Positions 2 through 10,050 of a stretch of DNA of 15,821 bases are shown piece by piece. Made by a program: the position numbers and the translations under genes. Below the pieces are notes generated by a model, which was not told the DNA's origin, ran no database searches, and saw only the letters and a program-made list of their open reading frames with translations. Origin of the DNA: Candidatus Diapherotrites archaeon CG10_big_fil_rev_8_21_14_0_10_31_34 (lineage in GTDB: Archaea > Iainarchaeota > Iainarchaeia > Iainarchaeales > 1-14-0-10-31-34). The stretch lies in assembly GCA_002763225.1 (NCBI GenBank), contig PFAI01000016.1, positions 1-15,821 on the forward strand, written 5' to 3'. Each line of letters begins with the position of its first letter. Within the stretch, counting starts at the first letter, position 1.

Positions 2-430
2 ATTCTCTAACCCTTCAACTATTTTTTCTCCCTGCACTTTTGTTTTTCCATAAAAATTCAATGGATTAACTGAATCTTTTTCTGAATAACTGCCTTTTAA
101 TCCATCAAAAACATAGTCAGTGGAAAAAAAAACGAGTTTGGAATTAAACGCCCTGCATGAATCAACAACATTTCTTGTGCCTTCAACATTAACTTCAATT
201 GCTTTTTCTTTTTCTGCTTCACAATATTCAACATTAGTTATTCCTGCAGGAAGCAAAACAATATCAGGATTTAAATCTTTAAACAAATAAATCAATGACT
301 GACCGTCAGTCATATCCAAAGAATAATCAACCCTGCCGTCAATTCCTGCAGTAATCACTTTGATTCCTTTTTTTTTGAAAACAGAAACAATTTTTTCTCC
401 AAGAAAACCTTTTCCAATCAAAAAAATCAT
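2..430 (-). CDS. rfbD: dTDP-4-dehydrorhamnose reductase (RmlD/RfbD family SDR), 5' part; runs off the left window edge
   Basis: Missing from the ORF track; translated by hand from ATG at 430: MIFLIGKGFLGEKIV...NPDIVLLPAGITNVEYCE...AIEVNVEGTRNVV...VFFSTDYVFDG.KGSYSEKD..NPLNFYGKTK. The STDYVFDG and YxxxK motifs are typical of RmlD. The start overlaps the rfbB stop (ATGA). Confidence 0.88.
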   Translation of the reverse strand, partial: MIFLIGKGFLGEKIVSVFKKKGIKVITAGIDGRVDYSLDMTDGQSLIYLFKDLNPDIVLLPAGITNVEYCEAEKEKAIEVNVEGTRNVVDSCRAFNSKLVFFSTDYVFDGLKGSYSEKDSVNPLNFYGKTKVQGEKIVEGLEN

Positions 431-1383
431 TTTTTCTTTAATGGTTTCCACCACCAAGAATTATTTTTATACCATTTAATAGTTTCTTTTAAAGCCTGTT
501 CAAAAGAATGTTCTGGAATAAAACCCAGTTTTTTTATTTTATCACAGTTTAAAGCATAACGCCAGTCATGCCCTTTCCTGTCTTCAACAAATTCAATTGA
601 ATCTTTTTCTTTTCCTAATTCATTCAAAATAAAATCAGTTATAAACAAATTTGATTTTTCATTTCCCCCGCCGACATTATAGGTTTCTCCTTTCTTTCCT
701 TTTTCCATTACTTTAATTACTGCATCACAATTATCTTTAACATAAATCCAGTCCCTGATGTTTTTTCCATCACCATAAACAGGAACTTTTTTTTGTTCCA
801 AAAGATTAGTGATAAACAAAGGAATTAATTTTTCTGGAAACTGGTTTGGCCCAAAATTATTTGAAGAACGAGTAATTTTTACATTCAAATCATAAGTTTT
901 AAAATAAGAAAAAGCAAGCCTGTCTGCTCCAGCTTTAGAAGCAGAATAAGGAGAAGAAGGCATTAATGCACTTTCCTCTGAAAACAAGCCTGATTCAATG
1001 CTCCCATAAACTTCATCAGTGGAAATCTGAATAAACTCTAAATCTTTTTTTCTTGCTTCCTCCAGCAAAACAAATGTTCCAAACACATCAGTTTTAATAA
1101 AGTCTTCAGGGGAAACAATTGAACGGTCAACATGAGATTCAGCAGCAAAATTAATTATTATATCAGAGTCTTTTGCTGCTTTTTCCACAACTTTTTTATC
1201 ACAAATATCTCCTTTAATAAAACTGTAATTCTTGTTTGATTCAATTTCTTTCAGGTTTTCTAATCTGCCTGCATAAGTTAATTTATCCAAATTAACTATT
1301 TTTGAGTCAGAATAAACAGAAAAATAATGCTTGATAAAATTGCTTCCGATAAATCCTGCTCCTCCGGTTACAAGCAAATTCAT
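427..1383 (-). CDS. rfbB: dTDP-glucose 4,6-dehydratase
   Basis: Motifs LLVTGGAGFIGSNF, DKLTYAG, FAAESHVDRSI, STDEVYG, PSSPYSASK, QFPEKLIP, RDWIYV and DRKGHD.RY. Start moved to ATG 1383 (MNLLVTGG), which follows a GGAGG RBS. Confidence 0.95.
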   Translation of the reverse strand: MNLLVTGGAGFIGSNFIKHYFSVYSDSKIVNLDKLTYAGRLENLKEIESNKNYSFIKGDICDKKVVEKAAKDSDIIINFAAESHVDRSIVSPEDFIKTDVFGTFVLLEEARKKDLEFIQISTDEVYGSIESGLFSEESALMPSSPYSASKAGADRLAFSYFKTYDLNVKITRSSNNFGPNQFPEKLIPLFITNLLEQKKVPVYGDGKNIRDWIYVKDNCDAVIKVMEKGKKGETYNVGGGNEKSNLFITDFILNELGKEKDSIEFVEDRKGHDWRYALNCDKIKKLGFIPEHSFEQALKETIKWYKNNSWWWKPLKKK

Positions 1384-1384
1384 T

Positions 1385-1849
1385 TCATCCTCCTTTTTTT
1401 GCCTTCCATTCAAAAGCAATCTCTTTTGAATTAAAAGCCAGCCTTATTTCATCCGGATTAACATAATCATATGTTTTTGTCGGAAAATTTAATATTAATG
1501 CCATGTTTTCATCAGCTGACTCAAAACCATGCATTACTTTTCTCGGAATTTTCAATAAAATTCTGTTTTCTTCTTTTTCTCCCAACAAAAATTCGTTTAC
1601 TTCATTAAATGTTTTTGAATTTTTTCTTTTATCGCATAAAACAACTTTAGCATTTCCTTTAACACAAACAAAATGATCTGTCTGATTTTCATGCATATGC
1701 CAGCCTTTAACATAATCAGGATTAACACAAGTAATATACGCCTGGCCGAATTCCTCAAAAATTTCATCATCTTTTCTGAGAATTTCCATTAAATAGCCTC
1801 TTTCATCATCAATTCTCTTTAATTTTTTTAGTTTGATTCCTTCAATCAC
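1385..1849 (-). CDS. rfbC: dTDP-4-dehydrorhamnose 3,5-epimerase family protein (RmlC-like cupin)
   Basis: Motifs DERGYLME, VKGWHMH and IPRKVMHGF. GTG start with GAGGTGA RBS (1856-1862). Adjacent to rfbB and rfbD. Confidence 0.85.
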   Translation of the reverse strand: MIEGIKLKKLKRIDDERGYLMEILRKDDEIFEEFGQAYITCVNPDYVKGWHMHENQTDHFVCVKGNAKVVLCDKRKNSKTFNEVNEFLLGEKEENRILLKIPRKVMHGFESADENMALILNFPTKTYDYVNPDEIRLAFNSKEIAFEWKAKKGG

Positions 1850-1885
1850 GCGACATCACCTCAATAAAATAACCAAACAAAACTA

Positions 1886-2818
1886 TTAAAGATTATTTTG
1901 TTCACGAAAAAAATCAATTGTCTTAATTAAACCTTCATTCAAAGAAATTTTTGGTTTCCAATTCAATTTTTTTTTAGCCAGAGAAATATCAGGTTTTCTT
2001 TGTTTTGGGTCATCCTGCAAAGAAGGCTTGAATTCTATTTTCAAGTCTTTTCCGGTTAATTCCTTTATTTTTTCTGCAAAATCCAGAATAGAAAATTCTT
2101 CCGGATTGCCTAAATTAATTGGCCCGAAAAAATCTGATTCCATTGTTTTTAAGATTCCTTCAATCATATCAGAAACAAAACAAAAACTTCTGGTTTGTTT
2201 TCCTGAACCATAAACAGTTAAAGGCCTGTTGTTTAAAGCCTGATTAATAAAATTTGGCACAACTCTCCCGTCATTAATTCTCATTCTTGGCCCATAAGTA
2301 TTAAAGATTCTGACAATTTTTCCTTTGAAATTAAATTGTTTTTCATAAGCCTTAATTAATGCTTCAGAAAATCTTTTTGATTCATCATAACAAGAACGGA
2401 TTCCGACAGGATTTACGTTTCCATAATAAGATTCTTTTTGGGGATGCTCTAAAGGGTCTCCATAAACTTCTGAAGTAGAAGTAAACAAAAATTTTGCCTT
2501 GTTTTTTAAAGCTAAATCAAGCAAGTTTTTTGTTCCAACTGAACCAACTAACATTGTTTCAACCGGCTTGGAAAAATAATCAACAGGAGAAGCAAGAGAA
2601 GCTAAATGAAAAACTTCTTCAACTTTTTCTTCAAAAGAAAAAAAATTAATATCCTGTTCCAGAAAATGGAATTTATTGTTTTCCATTAAATGCTCAATGT
2701 TTTTTTTGTTTCCTGAAACAAGGTTATCAACACAAAAAACTTTTTTTCCCTGTGCAATTAATGAATCACATAAATGGCTTCCAATAAAACCTGCGCCTCC
2801 GGAAACTAAAACTTTCAT
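1886..2818 (-). CDS. uxs: UDP-glucuronate decarboxylase (UDP-xylose synthase) family SDR
   Basis: Motifs GGAGFIGSHLCD, FHLASLASP, STSEVYGDPLEHPQ.ESYYGNVNPVG.RSCYDESKR, RIFNTYGPRM..NDGRVV.NF and DDPKQRKPDI. Same operon as UDP-glucose dehydrogenase. Confidence 0.85.
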   Translation of the reverse strand: MKVLVSGGAGFIGSHLCDSLIAQGKKVFCVDNLVSGNKKNIEHLMENNKFHFLEQDINFFSFEEKVEEVFHLASLASPVDYFSKPVETMLVGSVGTKNLLDLALKNKAKFLFTSTSEVYGDPLEHPQKESYYGNVNPVGIRSCYDESKRFSEALIKAYEKQFNFKGKIVRIFNTYGPRMRINDGRVVPNFINQALNNRPLTVYGSGKQTRSFCFVSDMIEGILKTMESDFFGPINLGNPEEFSILDFAEKIKELTGKDLKIEFKPSLQDDPKQRKPDISLAKKKLNWKPKISLNEGLIKTIDFFREQNNL

Positions 2819-2827
2819 AAAAAAACC

Positions 2828-3724
2828 TTAAATCAAATCAACAGAATTCTTCAGATATTTTGATAGTTCTTTATTCATTTCAGGTCTCTTTAAAGCATAC
2901 TCAATATTTGCCTTTAAATAACTCATTTTGTCTCCAACAGTAAGCCATTGCCCGTCCTGAATTTCATAAGCCATTAATTTATCTATTTCATTTAAAATCC
3001 TTAAACCATCAGTTAACTGAAGCTCGTTTCCTTTTCCAAAAGGAATTTCCTCTAAAATCCCAAAAATTTCAGGTTTCAACAAATATCTTCCAACAATAGC
3101 CAAATCAGACGGCGCTTTATTTACAGCAGGCTTTTCAACCATTCCTTCAACCACAATCTGACCATTAACTTTTTTGTATTTAATTATTCCAAACTTAGGG
3201 ATTTCACTTTTTGAAACTTTTTGAACGCATAAAACAGAAGAATTATGTTTTTCATAAACATTAATTAAATTCTTTAAAGCAGGCTTATCAGATAAAATCA
3301 AATCATCTCCTAACAAAACAGCAAAAGGCTCATTTCCAATATGCTTTTTTGCACACAACACAGCATGGCCTAAACCCAAAGGCTCTTTTTGTCTGATATA
3401 ATAAATGTCAGCAAGATTATCAATTTCCTGCAATTGTTTAAGCCAATCTTTTTTTCCTTTTTCTTCAAGAACAGAATATAATTCCGGAACCCTGTCAAAA
3501 TGATTTTCAATTGCAGTCTTGTCTTTTCCGGTAACAATAATAATATCATCAATTCCGGATTTAACTGCTTCTTCAACAATATACTGAATCGCAGGCTTGT
3601 CTACAACAGGAAACATTTCTTTTGGAATTGCCTTGCTTGCAGGCAAAAATCTTGTTCCAAGACCTGCAGCAGGAATAACAGCTTTTTTTACAACAGTAGT
3701 TTCATGAATTAAATTTTTTACCAA
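2828..3724 (-). CDS. galU: UTP--glucose-1-phosphate uridylyltransferase
   Basis: Motifs KAVIPAAGLGTRFLPASKAIPKEM, IENHFD, RQKEPLGLGHAV, LLGDD, VEKP and ELQLTD. TTG start overlaps the end of ugd; the exact start is uncertain. Confidence 0.92.
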   Translation of the reverse strand: MVKNLIHETTVVKKAVIPAAGLGTRFLPASKAIPKEMFPVVDKPAIQYIVEEAVKSGIDDIIIVTGKDKTAIENHFDRVPELYSVLEEKGKKDWLKQLQEIDNLADIYYIRQKEPLGLGHAVLCAKKHIGNEPFAVLLGDDLILSDKPALKNLINVYEKHNSSVLCVQKVSKSEIPKFGIIKYKKVNGQIVVEGMVEKPAVNKAPSDLAIVGRYLLKPEIFGILEEIPFGKGNELQLTDGLRILNEIDKLMAYEIQDGQWLTVGDKMSYLKANIEYALKRPEMNKELSKYLKNSVDLI

Positions 3725-4983
3725 GATAATCCCTCATAATTTAAGGGTTTAATTTCCTTAAAAATGTTTCTTGCATCAAAAACAGGCTTTTCTTTGAAAT
3801 CCAGAGAAGAAAATTCATTCCAGTCAGTTAAAATCAAAACAATATCACTTAAATCAACTGTATTTTGAGGGGAATTATTATAAGAAATTTCAGGAATTTC
3901 TTTTTTCATGTTTTCTTCTGCCTGAGGATCATGAGCAATAACTTCTGCACGCTCTTTTAAAAGCAGTTTAATTACAGGAATTGAACGGCTTTCCCTTACA
4001 TCATCTGTTCCTGCCTTAAAAGCCAATCCAAGAACAGCAACCTTTTTTCCTTTTAATTCAGTCCTGGATTTAATTAAATCCAAAAAAACTTTTGGCTGCA
4101 ATTCATTTACCTGCATAACAGAATCAAGCAAAAAAGTTTCAATGCCTAATTCATTTCCTTTAGCAATCAAAGCAGAAACATCTTTAGGAAAACAACTGCC
4201 CCCAAAACCAATTCCTGCATTTAAAAAATTCGGGGAAATTCTTTTATCCAACCCGACTCCTTTAGAAACAATATAAGTGTCAATGCCCATTCTCTTACAG
4301 ATATTTCCAACTTCATTAATAAAAGAAATTTTTGTTGCAAGCAAAGAGTTAGAAGCATATTTAATCATTTCAGCTTCAGAAAAACCGCAAAAAAATTTAG
4401 GAGAAGAAAAAGAAGAATAAACTTCTTCCATTATTTTCTTTGTTTTTTCTTCTTCTAGTCCTAAAATAATTCTATCAGGATTCAAAAAATCCTCTAAAGC
4501 AAATCCTTCCCTTAAAGTTTCAGGGTTCATGCACAAGCCAAACTCCCCAAGATTTTTTCCTGAATGCTTTTCAAGCAAAGGCAAAACAAGTTTTTCAGTT
4601 GTAGAAGGCACAACAGTACTTTTAACTACAACAACATGAAAATCCGTTTTTTCTTTTAAAGCAAAAGCAATTTCTTTTGAAACAGTTTCAACAAAACTCA
4701 AATCACATTTACCTTTTTCATCACAAGGAGTTCCAACACAAATAAAAGAAACAGCTGAATCAGATACTGCTTTTTTTAAATCAGTAGAGGCAAAAAGGTT
4801 TATTCCAACAGTTTTATTCAGTGCTTCCCTTAATCCTTTCTCAAAAATTGGAGGAATTTTATTGTTAATCATTTCAACTTTTTCTTTGTTGTTGTCAACA
4901 CAAACAACTTTATGGCCGTTTAATGCTAAACCAACTCCTGTAATCAACCCGACATAGCCTGTTCCAATAACCGAAATATTCAT
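3718..4983 (-). CDS. ugd: UDP-glucose/GDP-mannose 6-dehydrogenase family protein (probably UDP-glucose 6-dehydrogenase)
   Basis: Motifs IGTGYVGL, ICVGTP, KSTVVP, NPETLREG, catalytic GFGGSCFPKD and LGLAFKAGTDDVRES. GGAGTGA RBS at 4988-4994. Confidence 0.93.
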   Translation of the reverse strand: MNISVIGTGYVGLITGVGLALNGHKVVCVDNNKEKVEMINNKIPPIFEKGLREALNKTVGINLFASTDLKKAVSDSAVSFICVGTPCDEKGKCDLSFVETVSKEIAFALKEKTDFHVVVVKSTVVPSTTEKLVLPLLEKHSGKNLGEFGLCMNPETLREGFALEDFLNPDRIILGLEEEKTKKIMEEVYSSFSSPKFFCGFSEAEMIKYASNSLLATKISFINEVGNICKRMGIDTYIVSKGVGLDKRISPNFLNAGIGFGGSCFPKDVSALIAKGNELGIETFLLDSVMQVNELQPKVFLDLIKSRTELKGKKVAVLGLAFKAGTDDVRESRSIPVIKLLLKERAEVIAHDPQAEENMKKEIPEISYNNSPQNTVDLSDIVLILTDWNEFSSLDFKEKPVFDARNIFKEIKPLNYEGLSW

Positions 4984-5074
4984 TAAATCACTCCAAAAAA
5001 GATAACAGATAAAGAAAACTTAAAGAAACTATTTTAAAATAAGAATGGTGCATATATAATATGATAGTATATGC
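4984..5074. promoter_or_regulatory. Divergent promoter region (ugd operon / RHH-nucleotidyltransferase A) with TATA-like box and candidate operator
   Basis: TTTTAAAA at 5032-5039, preceded by purine-rich AAAGAAAC. Palindrome CATA-TATAA-TATG at 5051-5063. Outer inverted repeat GCATATA (5050-5056) / TATATGC (5068-5074). Confidence 0.6.
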
Positions 5075-5877
5075 GGGAAAGAGTCACAATTACAATTAAA
5101 GAAGATGTACTTAAGCAGGTTGACAGAATAGTTGACGGTTTAACTATTAGAAGCAGAAGCCAGGCAATAGAATTTCTTTTATCAAAAACCCTTTCAGATT
5201 ACAGATTAAAAAACGCATTGATTTTAGCCGGAGGAAAAGACTTAATCAAAGGAATTCCAAAGAAAAGCAAATTCATTTTAGAGATTAATGGAAAATATTT
5301 GATTGAAAAAGTAATAAACAATTTAGAGGAATTCCACACAGGAAAAATTACAGTCAGCATGGATTCAAACAAAGAACAAATAATAAAAAAGCTTAATGAA
5401 AAAAAGATTTCAGTTGATTTTCTTGAATTAGATAAAGCTTCTGGTACAATTGAACCAATCAATAAAATGAAAAACAATTTTAAAGACACTTTTGCTGTAG
5501 TTCATGGAGACACTTTAAGCAGTTTAAATTTAAATGAAATGCTTGAGTTTCATCAGTCAAATAAAGCTCTTGCAACAATTGCTTTAACTACTGTGAATAA
5601 CCCGAAAGATTATGGAGTAGCAATGCTGCAAGGCAAAAAAATAACTGAATTTATTGAAAAACCTAAAAACGAAGCAGGAAGTTATTTGATTAGCGCAGGA
5701 TATTATATTTTTGAGCCAGAAATATTCAAATATATTTCAAGGGATATGAAAAGCATTGAAAAAGACTTGTTTCCAAAGCTGGCAGAAAAAGGTTTGCTGA
5801 ATGGCTATCCTTTTCAGGGAATCTACTTAAATGTTAACACAAAAAAAGACTTTGAAAAAGCAAAAAGGATTTTGTAA
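5071..5877 (+). CDS. RHH (NikR/CopG-like) domain fused to a degenerate sugar-phosphate nucleotidyltransferase domain; probable transcriptional regulator (paralog A)
   Basis: N-terminus RERVTITIKEDVLKQVD...RSRSQAIEFLL fits the RHH strand-helix-helix pattern. The rest has ALILAGG, HGD, DYGVA, FIEKP and AGYYIFEP, but lacks GxGTRLxP. Confidence 0.8.
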   Translation: MRERVTITIKEDVLKQVDRIVDGLTIRSRSQAIEFLLSKTLSDYRLKNALILAGGKDLIKGIPKKSKFILEINGKYLIEKVINNLEEFHTGKITVSMDSNKEQIIKKLNEKKISVDFLELDKASGTIEPINKMKNNFKDTFAVVHGDTLSSLNLNEMLEFHQSNKALATIALTTVNNPKDYGVAMLQGKKITEFIEKPKNEAGSYLISAGYYIFEPEIFKYISRDMKSIEKDLFPKLAEKGLLNGYPFQGIYLNVNTKKDFEKAKRIL

Positions 5878-5879
5878 AA

Positions 5880-5987
5880 CAAACTTTTTCAAAAAAAGTT
5901 TGATCAAAAACGGTTTGCTTCGCAAACACAAATTCTCAGAAAAGTTTGATCAAAAACACTTTTTTCAAAAAAAGCTGCACCAAAAAC
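5880..5987. repeat. Intergenic hairpin/direct-repeat cluster between convergent genes (REP-like; possible bidirectional terminator)
   Basis: AAAAGTTTGATCAAAAAC is exact at 5894-5911 and 5940-5957, with a 14/18 copy at 5970-5987. Stem CAAACTTTT/AAAAGTTTG at 5880-5902. Hairpin GTTTGC-TTC-GCAAAC at 5913-5927. Confidence 0.8.
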
Positions 5988-5989
5988 AA

Positions 5990-6805
5990 TCAAAAAAATT
6001 CTTCAAACAATTCTTTTTCTTCTAAAATTTGTTTTTCTGTTACGCCCTTGAAGTGCTCGATGATTACAGGAATTTCTTTGATTTGTTTTATCTGCTTAAG
6101 CAGGTCAAGCTCTTTTTCAGAAACAGGCAAATGAATTTTTTCCCCAATTGGTTTATGCAAATGAATTTCCTTTATTTTATCCTTGAACTGCATTAAATCA
6201 CTGAAAGTGTTATCGCTTAAAGAATGACCTAAATCAAAAAGCAAACCAAAAGAAGGAAAAGAATCAAAAACCTTTTGAAATTTTTCCCCAAAAACCAAAG
6301 CCTTGTTTTCATTTGAACTAATGTTTTCAATAGCCAAAGAAAACTTTTGTTTTTTGTTTTTTTCAGCAAAATAATTTAATACGTCAAACAAATTTTTCCA
6401 GCTTTGTTTGCTGTCAAGTTTTTCTTCAATTTTTGCATCTCCGATTCCGCCAATATCTTTATAAGAAACTTCAAACAAGAACCCTGGATGAAAACTAATT
6501 ATTTTTGCCCCTGCAAGTCCGGCAAAAACAAAAAAAGAATCAATTATCTGTTTATTTGTTTCAGTTAAACCCAAAGAAGGATTAAACCAGATTTTTTCTC
6601 TCATTGGGGGAAATAAGCCGTGTAAAGTGAAAGCAACATCAGGAAAATTGTCACGGATTTTCTTTGTGGTTTCAATTAAGTTTTCTTCAAATTTGTGCGC
6701 AGCGCCTAACTCAATTGTTTTAAAGCCTAAAGAATAAGCTTGTTCAATTGAATCATAAACTGAAAAGCCATTTGAAGCAAAATAACTTGAACTAATTCCC
6801 AGCAT
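5990..6805 (-). CDS. Xylose isomerase-like TIM-barrel protein (sugar phosphate isomerase/epimerase, AP-endonuclease-2 fold)
   Basis: Strand-end motifs IELG, TLHG, SFHPG, AIEN, LLFDLGH, EIHLH, H.P and IIEH retain the E/D/H/E metal ligands. GGGGA RBS upstream. Confidence 0.8.
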   Translation of the reverse strand: MLGISSSYFASNGFSVYDSIEQAYSLGFKTIELGAAHKFEENLIETTKKIRDNFPDVAFTLHGLFPPMREKIWFNPSLGLTETNKQIIDSFFVFAGLAGAKIISFHPGFLFEVSYKDIGGIGDAKIEEKLDSKQSWKNLFDVLNYFAEKNKKQKFSLAIENISSNENKALVFGEKFQKVFDSFPSFGLLFDLGHSLSDNTFSDLMQFKDKIKEIHLHKPIGEKIHLPVSEKELDLLKQIKQIKEIPVIIEHFKGVTEKQILEEKELFEEFF

Positions 6806-6899
6806 TTTATCCCCGCAAAAAAATAAATTAAAGCAATAAAAAATTAGAAGAGTTTGATTTTTAAATAAATGTAATCATAATTAATATGAAAAAGTATGA
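6806..6899. promoter_or_regulatory. Divergent promoter region (TIM-barrel gene / RHH-nucleotidyltransferase B) with TATA-like box and candidate operator
   Basis: TTTTTAAATAA at 6858-6868. Palindrome TCATA-ATTAA-TATGA at 6875-6889. A further GTATGA at 6894-6899 overlaps the start codon. Confidence 0.6.
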
Positions 6900-7741
6900 A
6901 CAAGAAAAGCGATAAAGAAAGAGTAACAATTAATATTGCTTCTAATGTTTTAAAAACAATTGACAGCAGAATTGACGGCCAAAAAATAAGAAACAGAAGC
7001 CATGCAATAGAAAACCTGGTTAGAAAAGCAATTCAAAGCACTGATTTATCCGCTGCATTTATTTTAGCCGGAGGAAAAGGAACAAGATTAAGGCCTTTAA
7101 CTGACAACATAACAAAACCAATGATCCAAGTCAAAGAAAAACCAATTCTGGAATACATAATTGAACTGCTGGCAAAATATGATGTAAGAAACGCAATTAT
7201 AGCATTAGGATACAAAGGAGAACAAATCAAAGAATATTTTGGAAACGGAGAAAAATGGAATATGAACATTGAATATGTAACAGAAAAAAAGCCTTTGGGA
7301 ACAGGAGGGCCATTAAGACTGGCAAGAAATTTGCTTGTAGACGAATTCCTGATGTTTAACGGAGACAATTTAACTAATATTAATTTAAAAGACATGCATT
7401 CTTTTCACAAAAAAAACAATGCTTTTGCAACAATAGCCCTTTCATCAGTTAAAGACCCAAAAAACTTTGGGGTAATTGAATTGCAGGGAAACCAAATCAA
7501 AAGATTTATTGAAAAACCAAGCAAGCCGGAATCAAATCTGATTAACGCAGGAACATATATCCTGAAACCAGAAGTAATTGATTTGATTCCAAAAGGATTT
7601 TCTTTAATTGAAAAAGATGTTTTTCCTCAGTTAAGCGAAGAAGGAAAATTATATGGGTATGTCTATAACGGCCAATGGTTTCCAACTGACACATTTGAAA
7701 GATATGAAAAAGCAAAAACCGAATGGAAAGGAATAATTTGA
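6896..7741 (+). CDS. RHH domain fused to a sugar-1-phosphate nucleotidyltransferase (mannose-1-phosphate guanylyltransferase-like) domain (paralog B)
   Basis: RHH: KERVTINIASNVLKTID...RNRSHAIENLVRKAI. Transferase: ILAGGKGTRLRPLT..ITKPM, EKKPLGTGG, FNGD, FIEKP, INAGTYIL. No C-terminal beta-helix domain. Confidence 0.85.
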   Translation: MNKKSDKERVTINIASNVLKTIDSRIDGQKIRNRSHAIENLVRKAIQSTDLSAAFILAGGKGTRLRPLTDNITKPMIQVKEKPILEYIIELLAKYDVRNAIIALGYKGEQIKEYFGNGEKWNMNIEYVTEKKPLGTGGPLRLARNLLVDEFLMFNGDNLTNINLKDMHSFHKKNNAFATIALSSVKDPKNFGVIELQGNQIKRFIEKPSKPESNLINAGTYILKPEVIDLIPKGFSLIEKDVFPQLSEEGKLYGYVYNGQWFPTDTFERYEKAKTEWKGII

Positions 7742-7766: not shown

Positions 7767-8729
7767 ATGAAAAAAATACTGATAACAGGCATTAATGGTT
7801 TTGTGGGAAGCCATTTAGCTGAATATGTTTTAAACAACAATTTAGGCGAAGTGCATGGAAGCTACAGAAAAAACGAGGATTTATCTAACATTAAAGGAAT
7901 AATAAACCAAATAGAATTAATTGAATGCGATATAACTGATTCATATGGAGTAGACAAAACAATAAAAGAAATCAAGCCTGAATACATTTTTCATTTAGCT
8001 GCACAGGCTTTTGTTCCAAGTTCATGGAAATCCCCGATTGAAACAATGAATACAAACATTATTGGCTCATTAAATTTATTTGAAGCAATCAAAAACAACA
8101 ACAAAGACATTACAATCCAGATAGCTGGTTCAAGCGAAGAATACGGTTTAGTTAAAGAAAATGAAGTTCCAATGACAGAATTAAATCCTTTAAGACCTTT
8201 AAGCCCTTACGGAGTAAGCAAAGTCGCAATGGATTTGTTAGGCTACCAGTATTATCAAAGTTATGGACTAAAAATTGTCAGAACCCGAGCATTCAACCAT
8301 GAAGGCCCTAGAAGAGGAGAACAATATGTTACAAGCAATTTTGCAAAACAAGTTGCATTAATTGAAGCAGGAAAACAAAAACCAATTTTAATGGTGGGAA
8401 ACTTAGAAGCAAAAAGAGATTACACTGATGTAAGAGACATGGTTAAAGCTTACTGGCTTGCAGCAGAAAAAGGAGTTCCAGGAGAAGTATATAATATTGC
8501 TTCAGGAAAAGCATACAAAATTCAAGTAATAGTAGACATACTAAAAAAATTAACTAAAAAAGATTTTGAAGTAAAACAAGACCCAAAAAGATTAAGACCT
8601 TCAGATGTGCAAATTTTATTAGGAGACTCAACTAAATTCAGAAAACAAACCGGCTGGAAACCGGAAATCCCGTTTGAAAAAACAATGGAAGACTTATTAA
8701 ATTACTGGAGAGAAAAAATCAAGGAATAA
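7767..8729 (+). CDS. GDP-mannose 4,6-dehydratase family SDR (GMD, or the related GDP-4-keto-6-deoxymannose reductase RMD)
   Basis: Motifs LITGINGFVGSHL, FHLAAQAFVPSSW, SSEEYG, PLSPYGVSK, FNHEGPRRG, GNLEAKRD and LRPSDV..LLGD. GGGGG RBS upstream. Confidence 0.82.
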   Translation: MKKILITGINGFVGSHLAEYVLNNNLGEVHGSYRKNEDLSNIKGIINQIELIECDITDSYGVDKTIKEIKPEYIFHLAAQAFVPSSWKSPIETMNTNIIGSLNLFEAIKNNNKDITIQIAGSSEEYGLVKENEVPMTELNPLRPLSPYGVSKVAMDLLGYQYYQSYGLKIVRTRAFNHEGPRRGEQYVTSNFAKQVALIEAGKQKPILMVGNLEAKRDYTDVRDMVKAYWLAAEKGVPGEVYNIASGKAYKIQVIVDILKKLTKKDFEVKQDPKRLRPSDVQILLGDSTKFRKQTGWKPEIPFEKTMEDLLNYWREKIKE

Positions 8730-8743
8730 ACACCGGCGATTTT

Positions 8744-9268
8744 ATGGAAGACTTAAAAGAAAAAATAAGAAATATTCCTGATTTCCCAAAAAAAGGAATA
8801 ATGTTCAGGGATATAACTACATTATTGCAGGACCCAAAAGCAACAAAAAAAGCAATTCAAGGAATGATTAAACCATTTGAAAACGAAAAAATTGATGTTG
8901 TTATAGGAACAGAAGCAAGAGGATTTATTTTTGGAGCAATAATTGCATTTGAATTAGGGGTTTCTTTTGTTCCAGTAAGAAAACCTGGAAAGCTTCCATT
9001 TGAAACAGAAAAAGCTTCTTATGAAAAAGAATATGGAGAAGATGAATTAGAAATGCATTTAGATGCAATCAAAAAAGGAGACAAAGTTTTAGTTTGTGAC
9101 GATTTATTAGCAACTGCGGGGACCGCAAAAGCAGTGAAAGAACTAGTTGAAAAATTAGGTGGGGAAATAATTGGATTTTGTTTTTTAATTGAATTAAGTT
9201 TTTTGCAGGGAAGAGAAAAACTTAAGCCGTATAAAGTTTTTTCTTTAATTGATTATAATTCAGAGTGA
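8744..9268 (+). CDS. apt: Adenine phosphoribosyltransferase
   Basis: Motifs IPDFPKKGIMFRDIT, EARGFIFG, VRKPGKLP, EYG and the PRPP-binding loop VCDDLLATAGT. Confidence 0.96.
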   Translation: MEDLKEKIRNIPDFPKKGIMFRDITTLLQDPKATKKAIQGMIKPFENEKIDVVIGTEARGFIFGAIIAFELGVSFVPVRKPGKLPFETEKASYEKEYGEDELEMHLDAIKKGDKVLVCDDLLATAGTAKAVKELVEKLGGEIIGFCFLIELSFLQGREKLKPYKVFSLIDYNSE

Positions 9269-10050
9269 TTAAAATGATTGGATTAATCGGCGGAACAGGA
9301 TTTGAAGACCCAAATTTATTCAAATTAATAAAAGAAAAAAAAGTTTCAACTGAGTTTGGAAAACCCAGTTCAACAATAAAAATCGGAGAAATAGCAGGAA
9401 AAAAAGTTGCATTGCTTTCAAGGCATGGAACAAAACACACAATTAATCCTTCAAACGTAAATTACAGGGCAAACATTCAGGCATTAAAAGAAGTTGGAGT
9501 AACAAAAATTTTGAGTGCTTCTGCAGTAGGAAGCTTAAAAGAAGAATTCAAGCCAGGGGAATTTGTTTTTTTAGACCAGTTCATTGACCGCACAACAAAA
9601 AGACAGCAAACTTTTTTTGATAAAAACAAAGTATGCCATATTTCTGTTGCAGAACCATTTTGTTCAAATTTAAGAAAAAACTTAATCCAGTCAGCCAAAG
9701 AACTGAAATTTGATTTTCACGAAAAAGGAATTTGTGTTGTAATTGAAGGTCCTCGTTTTTCAACCAAAGCAGAAAGCAATTTATTCAGAAGCTGGAATGC
9801 AGATATAATTGGAATGACTTTAGTTCCAGAAGTTGTTTTAGCAAGAGAAGCAGAAATCTGTTATGCATCAATTTCAACAATAACCGATTATGATGTATGG
9901 AAAGAAAAACCAGTTGACGTGGAAAGCGTTTTAAAAACAATGAAAGAATCCAATTCAAAATTACAGCAGTTAATCAAACATGTTGTTCCATTAATAGATG
10001 AAAAAAAAGACTGTGAATGCTATCACTCTTTAGATAATGCGTTTGTTTAA
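9265..10050 (+). CDS. mtnP: S-methyl-5'-thioadenosine phosphorylase
   Basis: Motifs IGLIGGTG, RHG.KH...P..VNYRANI, SAVGSL, DQFIDRT, IEGPRFSTKAES, GMT..PE..LARE and TDYD. Start is GTG 9265 (overlapping the apt stop) or ATG 9274. Confidence 0.93.
   Translation: MIKMIGLIGGTGFEDPNLFKLIKEKKVSTEFGKPSSTIKIGEIAGKKVALLSRHGTKHTINPSNVNYRANIQALKEVGVTKILSASAVGSLKEEFKPGEFVFLDQFIDRTTKRQQTFFDKNKVCHISVAEPFCSNLRKNLIQSAKELKFDFHEKGICVVIEGPRFSTKAESNLFRSWNADIIGMTLVPEVVLAREAEICYASISTITDYDVWKEKPVDVESVLKTMKESNSKLQQLIKHVVPLIDEKKDCECYHSLDNAFV

Follow-up and report, generated by a model that had tools for sequence, protein, structure and literature searches.

Two neighbouring genes raise the question treated here. They lie in the window—the whole 15,821-nucleotide stretch analysed, positions 1–15,821 of contig PFAI01000016.1 from a small-genome Diapherotrites archaeon (genome of 1.04 Mb, 81% complete)—and encode fusions of a domain of the ribbon-helix-helix (RHH) type, which binds DNA, to a nucleoside diphosphate (NDP)-sugar pyrophosphorylase fold. 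Nearly the same short DNA site stands at the same distance before each of them: which protein reads these sites, and how far does control through them reach? As judged by sequence conservation, the two sites are very probably operators of the fusion genes' own promoters, and the second paralogue, B, likely controls a distal regulon in addition. The explanation that fits best overall—RHH/NDP-sugar-pyrophosphorylase regulators with autoregulatory operators, B also controlling gluconeogenic and amino-acid genes, as TrmB does elsewhere—is considered probable. The genes and their promoter elements are as follows.

5071..5877, + strand: paralogue A, RHH domain (strand R-V-T-I-T) and NDP-sugar pyrophosphorylase fold, matched by Pfam PF00483 and RHH_1; AlphaFold2 (AF2) model with a predicted local distance difference test (pLDDT) of 91.
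6896..7741, + strand: paralogue B, RHH domain (strand R-V-T-I-N) and NDP-sugar pyrophosphorylase with the GGKGTRLRPLT...KP loop intact.
5049..5075, + strand: putative operator array A, with boxes at 5049-5055 (inverted), 5059-5065 and 5069-5075 (overlapping the ATG); kept in orthologues.
6874..6900, + strand: putative operator array B, with boxes ATCATAA (6874-6880), ATATGAA (6884-6890) and GTATGAA (6894-6900, overlapping the ATG); kept in B orthologues.
5030..5041, no strand assigned: TATA element TATTTTAAAATA, self-complementary; its TTTAAA begins 17 nt before the first core.
6858..6867, no strand assigned: TATA element of paralogue B, its sequence readable on both strands.

The sites CATATATAATATGA (5051-5064) and CATAATTAATATGA (6876-6889) are identical at 12 of 14 positions. 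Both stop 7 nt upstream of the ATG (5071 for A and 6896 for B), and half-sites recur with a period of 10 bp at 5050/5060/5070 and 6875/6885/6895. Sites, coordinates, identity, distance and period had all been given in a preliminary description, and all are confirmed in the sequence. The same description regarded each site as a palindromic operator; the sites are real, but what recurs, in steps of 10 bp and pointing either way, is a 7-bp box and not one palindrome. Each site consists of three such boxes, 15–17 nt after a TATA box, and the family consensus of the box is the heptamer GTATGAT or its complement. Both TATA elements of the window can be read on either strand—with the array downstream for the regulator gene and 8–9 nt upstream for the divergent gene—and each may serve two promoters: TATTTTAAAATA that of A and that of the divergent ugd operon, the other that of B and that of the divergent TIM-barrel gene. 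The second box of each array contains an out-of-frame ATG (5061 and 6886), 10 nt before the true start and near the predicted transcription start, which could initiate a short upstream reading frame.

On its own, CATA-N5-TATG has 15 copies across the 1.04 Mb of the genome, which corresponds by arithmetic to ~1.4e-3 per 100-nt window. This genome-wide count falls within the 3–18 copies found for spacers of 0–20; hence, no enrichment is seen and genome frequency alone proves nothing. The scan for the bare pattern had been suggested beforehand as a check.

The second suggested check, footprinting upstream of orthologues, found the motif conserved. The sample consists of 138 fusion genes, and a box pair was counted at up to two mismatches per pair. 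Within the phylum, 26 of 61 fusion genes have a box pair before them, compared with 0 of 204 further promoters at those loci. Among the metagenome homologues, some of which are from Patescibacteria, the figure is 38 of 69, compared with 2 of 140 controls—one of the two being a divergent ugd. Divergent partners that share a promoter with a fusion gene had been removed from the controls (51 in the phylum set, 22 in the metagenome set). Dinucleotide shuffles yield 0.3 box pairs on average and three at most. The p-values of this footprint carry no weight, because related sequences are not independent; it is the conservation of box pairs before the fusion genes of relatives that excludes chance for the two window sites. 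Flanks and spacers vary among orthologues, but the cores stay constant. Pairs are spaced at 10 bp (n=70) or 20 bp (n=21), any other spacing occurring no more than five times, and the 70 pairs at 10 bp comprise 28 inverted, 36 direct and 6 tail-to-tail arrangements.

The arrays go with the RHH fusion and with the TATA box. At one mismatch or fewer, a pair precedes 53 of 68 fused genes compared with 0 of 32 genes that encode a homologous catalytic domain without the fusion, some of the latter being operon-internal; row L106 of the original 33 unfused genes is actually fused and was removed. Since an analysis of TATA anchoring is blind to arrays beside the ATG, only the 15 orthologues with an ATG displaced by 36–235 nt were used. 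The array lies 17–18 nt from the TATA start in 14 of these 15, and the third box reads exactly TATGA in nine of the 15, where it is not the start codon. The third half-site, rated beforehand as weak evidence because it overlaps the start codon, does overlap it in the window and is nevertheless real. The distance from TATA to box is 14–19 nt in 45 of 52 inverted arrays. Taken together, orthologue conservation, the empty control and unfused promoters, and anchoring to TATA rather than to the ATG support the proposal that these are autoregulatory operators, and the refutation tests set for it beforehand left it standing. Under a matrix trained on distant metagenome loci, array B is the top three-box array of the genome. 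A scan of genome contigs returns nine loci, of which only two are fusion genes.

On the bacterial side, named Patescibacteria proteins share clusters with three metagenome proteins whose arrays are perfect or nearly so. In the sigma-70-like promoters of these three, the array is placed between TTGAC and −10-like elements or covers them. A further perfect GTATGAT/ATCATAC pair in a TTGACA promoter (L172:1027-1043) is located just downstream of a bacterial-type fusion gene, ahead of an unannotated gene.

A and B are 39% identical overall and 52% identical in their RHH domains, and fall into separate old clades in a quick tree of 132 rows. Both carry the ribbon-helix-helix signature—a short alternating strand, then two helices, related to known RHH proteins—and the arrays, as a sequence pattern, offer the at least two tandem or inverted subsites typical of operators of this superfamily. 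A profile of 18 RHH domains matches E. coli NikR (E 6.1e-5), Pyrococcus NikR (E 0.0017) and CopG (E 0.07), with NikR as the best PDB match. RHH_1 scores A at 19.7 bits in one scan (cut-off 20.5) and at 22.2 bits in another, and B has no Pfam RHH match. The AF2 models feature helices 11-20 and 29-43 behind an extended N-terminus; the monomers show no strand, as expected for unpartnered chains. Foldseek with the RHH model returns NikR first, albeit weakly (E 0.57, probability 0.87). The NikR-like R-V-T described for both proteins is kept in both, but only A has the full R-V-T-I-T of NikR, B reading R-V-T-I-N. Within this strand, Arg3 and Thr5 of E. coli NikR read its half-sites.

The remainder of each chain, residues ~47–268, is occupied by PF00483 (85.6 bits for A and 157 bits for B, cut-off 21.2), and with a template modelling score (TM) of ~0.72 both fold and family membership are assigned; none of the 25 NCBIfam models shown for each protein exceeds its cut-off. 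In A, the loop reads LAGGKDLIKGIPKKSK in place of the nucleotide-binding GGxGTRLxPLT...PK, which is decayed across the A clade and variable in length and sequence. The pattern used for an intact catalytic loop is crude for bacterial members and was applied to A and B only. The best PDB matches of B include mannose-1-phosphate guanylyltransferases (E ~1e-39), and its loop, NGD and EKP align with GMPPB. B carries WFPTD where solved enzymes carry WMDI/V, which makes its activity unsure. A is thus predicted to be a sensor-type regulator, and B is a candidate enzyme-regulator by sequence, with an architecture that fits a PutA-type enzyme-repressor, i.e. one chain acting as both enzyme and ligand-switched repressor. 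A profile of the RHH domain plus linker collects 910 clusters (50% identity) at E 0.001 and 329 at 1e-10, not all of which need be fusions. Atlas look-alike clusters come mainly from Aenigmarchaeota, Woesearchaeota and Altiarchaeota, with one from Methanobacteriota. Databases label the fusion proteins as enzymes, and no description of an RHH/NDP-sugar-pyrophosphorylase family or regulon was found in the literature searched, the coverage of which excludes subscription journals and bioRxiv supplements.

Possible control of the genes divergent from A and B had been proposed beforehand. Control of these is plausible, but the sites are not only local, as a variant of the motif recurs before central-carbon genes. 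A palindrome search across the family yields recurring distal matches before nadA, ppdK, gap, gdh, tkt, fbp and ald, and all five exact WTCATA-N5-TATGAW sites of this genome are intergenic, intergenic DNA being 11% of it.

Exact WTCATA-N5-TATGAW sites: C20:5768 (ppdK); C35:11435 (tkt); C52:20468 (gap-pgk); C63:15446 (gdh); and the site of gene B.

Palindromes of this type number 3–7 per genome in six genomes of the genus compared with 0–1 for the reversed control, and most other genomes among 215 hold 0–2. Exact sites at 200 nt or less are present in the genus for gap in 4/6 (five at one mismatch), ppdK in 4/6, tkt in 3/5, gdh in 5/6, nadA in 4/6 copies, and fbp in 2/4 plus G005. No nadA, fbp or ald turned up in the genome studied here, which is 81% complete, nor did ald in five relatives. 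A matrix built exclusively from 18 boxes of nine B promoters of other genomes, scanned over the whole genome, ranks gdh first, an aminotransferase gene second, tkt third, gap fourth, B itself sixth and ppdK ninth; the matches at ranks 5 and 8 overlap start codons, and those at ranks 7 and 10 lie in coding DNA. The site before the aminotransferase gene (C42:6417, after pckA) was found blind by this matrix. It is a direct repeat that recurs in four of the five other genomes of the genus, and G007 has a tail-to-tail pair there. G007, in which no ppdK was found, carries a B-type direct repeat before ppsA (phosphoenolpyruvate synthase). For ppdK, gap, gdh and the aminotransferase, the sites start 25–33 nt after the TATA start, and for ugd, the TIM barrel, tkt, fbp and nadA they lie before TATA. 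The sites are likely binding sites of the regulator because they recur before relatives of the fusion genes and before central-carbon genes. Outside the genus, the palindrome at one mismatch is found at 0 of 60 loci and an exact pair in any orientation at two, both gap (direct repeats in G012 and G022, genomes that carry A-type genes). No site was found before pckA (0/5), which is not counted as a member.

Several observations weigh against this interpretation. No box pair is present at two mismatches in 35 of 61 phylum and 31 of 69 metagenome homologues. Site A is imperfect: the distant matrix ranks it 55 when scored as a pair and 16 when scored as a triple, and the A-type matrix ranks it 16. 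A box can also serve as the −10 element in bacteria. Because it was their sites that led to the choice of gap, ppdK, tkt, gdh, fbp, nadA and ald, the counts within the genus are partly circular. Column permutation of the regulon matrix was a weak control: at score 12 the observed count was reached in 9 of 200 permutations, and at score 10 in 60 of 200. The palindrome is absent before gap or gdh in G006 and G007, though both have B. In G006, an antitoxin-like gene likewise has a GTATGAA array in front of it. This array consists of three GTATG boxes at a 10-bp period after TATA (L367:1501), ahead of an AbrB-like antitoxin and MazF-like pair labelled by sequence reading, and is a candidate for either co-regulation or a look-alike operator.

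Among the alternatives, the one that survives best, and is nonetheless improbable, keeps the window sites as autoregulatory RHH operators and assigns the distal sites to a TrmB-like or Lrp-like factor that reads a look-alike palindrome, gene B perhaps being one of its targets. TrmB-like and Lrp genes are present in the genome, which counts against B as the distal regulator. A winged-helix gene, a candidate alternative regulator, adjoins ppdK and is, together with a PfkB-like kinase and a small protein, convergent with it (G000:C20:1172-2960). TrmB proteins run such regulons elsewhere (PMC4706686, PMC10817205), and TrmB need not autoregulate (PMC10817205). The distal palindromes also belong mostly to one genus, yet B occurs in G006 and G007 as well. 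However, the distal sites share the family core and the 10-bp period and occur in inverted, direct and tail-to-tail form, which a fixed helix-turn-helix dimer would not be expected to read, and they are recovered by the matrix from B promoters alone. Further, at fewer than two mismatches the palindrome does not occur within 450 nt of any of 12 other regulator-like genes; the TrmB-like and Lrp genes lack it too, but may still encode the regulator. PF01978 matches other genes of the genome but not A or B.

The boxes themselves bear on which paralogue reads which site, as they differ with the third DNA-facing residue of the ribbon. For R-T-T proteins, the first base of the box is G in 118 of 162 cases and T in two, whereas for R-T-N proteins (the B clade) it is G in 0 of 18 and T in 11, with A as the last base in 13; the B variant of the box is TTATGAA. 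A nested A-type R-T-S clade has its left box moved to TTCATAA and another R-T-S clade has not, while K-S-T proteins are associated with GTAGGA-like boxes in one genus. With two lineage changes and one counter-example that speaks against it, this covariation is a lead, not a code; the matrix from B promoters is the cleaner test of which protein reads the distal sites. A second alternative, next in standing and likewise improbable, denies any such split: A and B would act jointly or interchangeably, by cross-binding or as A/B heterodimers like GMPPA/GMPPB, and no site could be assigned to one paralogue. It draws on the similarity of the RHH domains, on the hybrid ppdK sites (TTATGAA and GTATGAA), which score with both matrices (15.3 for B and 12.5 for A), and on the match of the A fold to GMPPA/GMPPB complexes, GMPPB being regulated by a non-catalytic paralogue (PMC11228364). 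Elsewhere, however, the matrix scores split—tkt and gdh with 19.4 for B and 6.9 for A, and the perfect A-type sites of nadA with 8.1 for B and 22.7 for A—and many genomes with A retain the A array though they lack a fused B.

A third alternative, very unlikely, is that these archaea use the motif generally as a core-promoter or initiator element, or that start codons merely give rise to it. The motif is located at the expected transcription start, TATG includes ATG, and 36 of 52 inverted arrays stand 22 nt before an ATG; yet it is missing from all 204 other promoters, has only the 15 genome copies of the bare pattern, persists when the ATG moves and occurs in bacterial promoters. That the similarity of the two sites is residue of a gene duplication or chance, as the adjacency of A and B and the lack of genome-wide enrichment might suggest, is least credible of all, being contradicted by a footprint that spans families and domains, by the divergence of A and B into separate clades and by cores that hold while flanks and spacers vary.

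In the preferred explanation, regulation by the fusion proteins, each box would take one RHH dimer, with cooperative neighbours one helical turn apart; boxes that are free in orientation but fixed in period agree with RHH dimers (PMC6294495). For a TATA box at about −26 (PMC10817205), the array would cover about −13 to +14, and its occupancy would block RNA polymerase, so that the RHH domains, bound to their own promoters, would repress their own genes. The arrays past TATA at ppdK, gap, gdh and the aminotransferase would block polymerase likewise. Sites before TATA—those of ugd, the TIM barrel, tkt, fbp and nadA—could either activate, as TrmBL1 does from such positions (PMC4706686), or occlude TFB. 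The pyrophosphorylase domain is proposed to bind an NDP-sugar or sugar-1-phosphate and thereby switch DNA binding, A being a pure sensor and B enzyme and sensor. End-product feedback through this domain is favoured because the target genes line the path that turns amino acids into hexose phosphate, from which the NDP-sugars of the locus are made: plentiful NDP-sugars would slow the flow from amino acids via pyruvate, phosphoenolpyruvate and triose phosphate to hexose phosphate.

By analogy, the DNA reading of this system would resemble that of NikR and Reg576, its architecture that of PutA and its scope that of TrmB. NikR (E. coli 1q5v/2hza, Pyrococcus 2bj1) is the nearest solved RHH protein by sequence and model, has the RVTIT strand of A and shares the GTATGA half-site with the family boxes (PMC7055735). 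It carries a C-terminal nickel-binding tetramerisation domain where A and B have the pyrophosphorylase fold, and its operator is GTATGA-N16-TCATAC (PMC7055735), whereas the fusion boxes follow one another directly, every 10 bp and whatever their orientation. Neither protein is thus a NikR-family member. Trifunctional PutA has an N-terminal RHH domain fused to an enzyme and is an autogenous repressor (PMC5293562), as proposed for the fusions; these differ by another enzyme, one paralogue with a decayed active-site loop and a predicted regulon that extends to central carbon. TrmBL1/Tgr of Thermococcales and haloarchaeal TrmB share with the predicted B regulon the marking of gluconeogenic and amino-acid genes by a palindrome, the placing of sites on either side of TATA and a link to surface glycosylation (PMC4706686, PMC10817205). 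In contrast, the fusions are RHH proteins and fall outside the TrmB family, which is defined by a winged-helix TrmB domain plus a sugar-binding domain. Their motif is not TATCAC-N5-GTGATA, and the signal predicted for them, an NDP-sugar or sugar phosphate, would be sensed by an enzyme fold. Reg576, ParG and CopG-type proteins bind arrays of short boxes with several dimers, Reg576 on dual heptamers (PMC6294495, PMC3413123); these are small plasmid proteins that lack a sensor domain, and the heptamers of Reg576 are 2 bp apart compared with 3 for the fusion boxes. GMPPA/GMPPB have the same fold, with a non-catalytic paralogue that senses product beside an active one (PMC11228364), but their feedback is allosteric on the enzyme, whereas that of A and B is predicted to act on transcription.

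The surroundings of A and B consist of the following genes.

2..4983, − strand: nucleotide-sugar operon ugd-galU-uxs-rmlC-rmlB-rmlD, divergent from A and candidate target of array A; labels from Pfam, except rmlD from sequence reading only.
5990..6805, − strand: xylose-isomerase-like TIM-barrel gene (PF01261), divergent from B and candidate target of array B.
7767..10050, + strand: GDP-mannose-dehydratase-like (gmd-like), phosphoribosyltransferase (apt-like) and nucleoside phosphorylase (mtaP-like) genes, which follow B.

Shared control of the divergent ugd and TIM-barrel genes by the arrays is plausible because, of 50 non-B phylum rows, 27 have ugd as the divergent neighbour of the fusion gene and six more have an epimerase/dehydratase there, and the TIM-barrel gene is divergent from B in eight of eight phylum rows. 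The genes at 7767..10050 are likely co-transcribed with B, which has a gmd-like gene behind it in seven of the eight phylum rows. In the intergenic interval where A and the TIM-barrel gene converge, at 5880-5975, the repeat AAACTTTT...AAAAGTTTGATCAAAAAC is present in two to three copies; its 15-nt core occurs 53 times in the genome at one mismatch, which suggests a REP-like or terminator-like element of this genome.

Other matches stand apart from the regulon. Group A [FeFe]-hydrogenase-like genes occur in three of nine family genomes (G000:C29:1058-2146, G003:C58:2893-3984 and G002:C2:40769-41854); they are not counted as members, and only one of the three has a site, at one mismatch, which adjoins the start in G003. 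Extra palindrome or repeat matches in 13 genomes outside the genus were rejected as mostly coding DNA (15 of 22 in one set examined, and the majority in a second set). In G025, which has a B-type protein, a form III RuBisCO gene carries a palindrome at its start (L346:1502), half of which is explained by a possible ATG. A B-type direct repeat stands ~190 nt before a secreted, S-layer-like gene labelled by sequence reading, with no NCBIfam match (L364:1501, G006), and a weaker A-type pair lies ahead of a glycosyltransferase/glycogen-synthase-like gene (G000:C7:7933).

The widest form of the proposal, for which the chances stand about even, is that RHH/pyrophosphorylase factors from DPANN archaea to Patescibacteria directly read the NDP-sugar pool with one heptamer code, and that in this genus an old pair of paralogues, split by a single ribbon residue (Thr/Asn), divides the targets: the decayed A on GTATGAT (ugd, nadA) and an active B on TTATGAA (gap-pgk, ppdK, fbp, tkt, gdh, ald and the aminotransferase), B being a TrmB-independent master regulator of gluconeogenesis in an archaeon of small genome. 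With named proteins, sites of 17–27 bp, a short list of ligands and a specificity prediction of one residue, it is directly testable. If true, a specific transcription factor would be common to DPANN archaea and Patescibacteria, together with its defined operator, one genus would have expanded this shared factor into a central-carbon regulon, and nucleotide-sugar feedback would act at the level of transcription via an enzyme fold.

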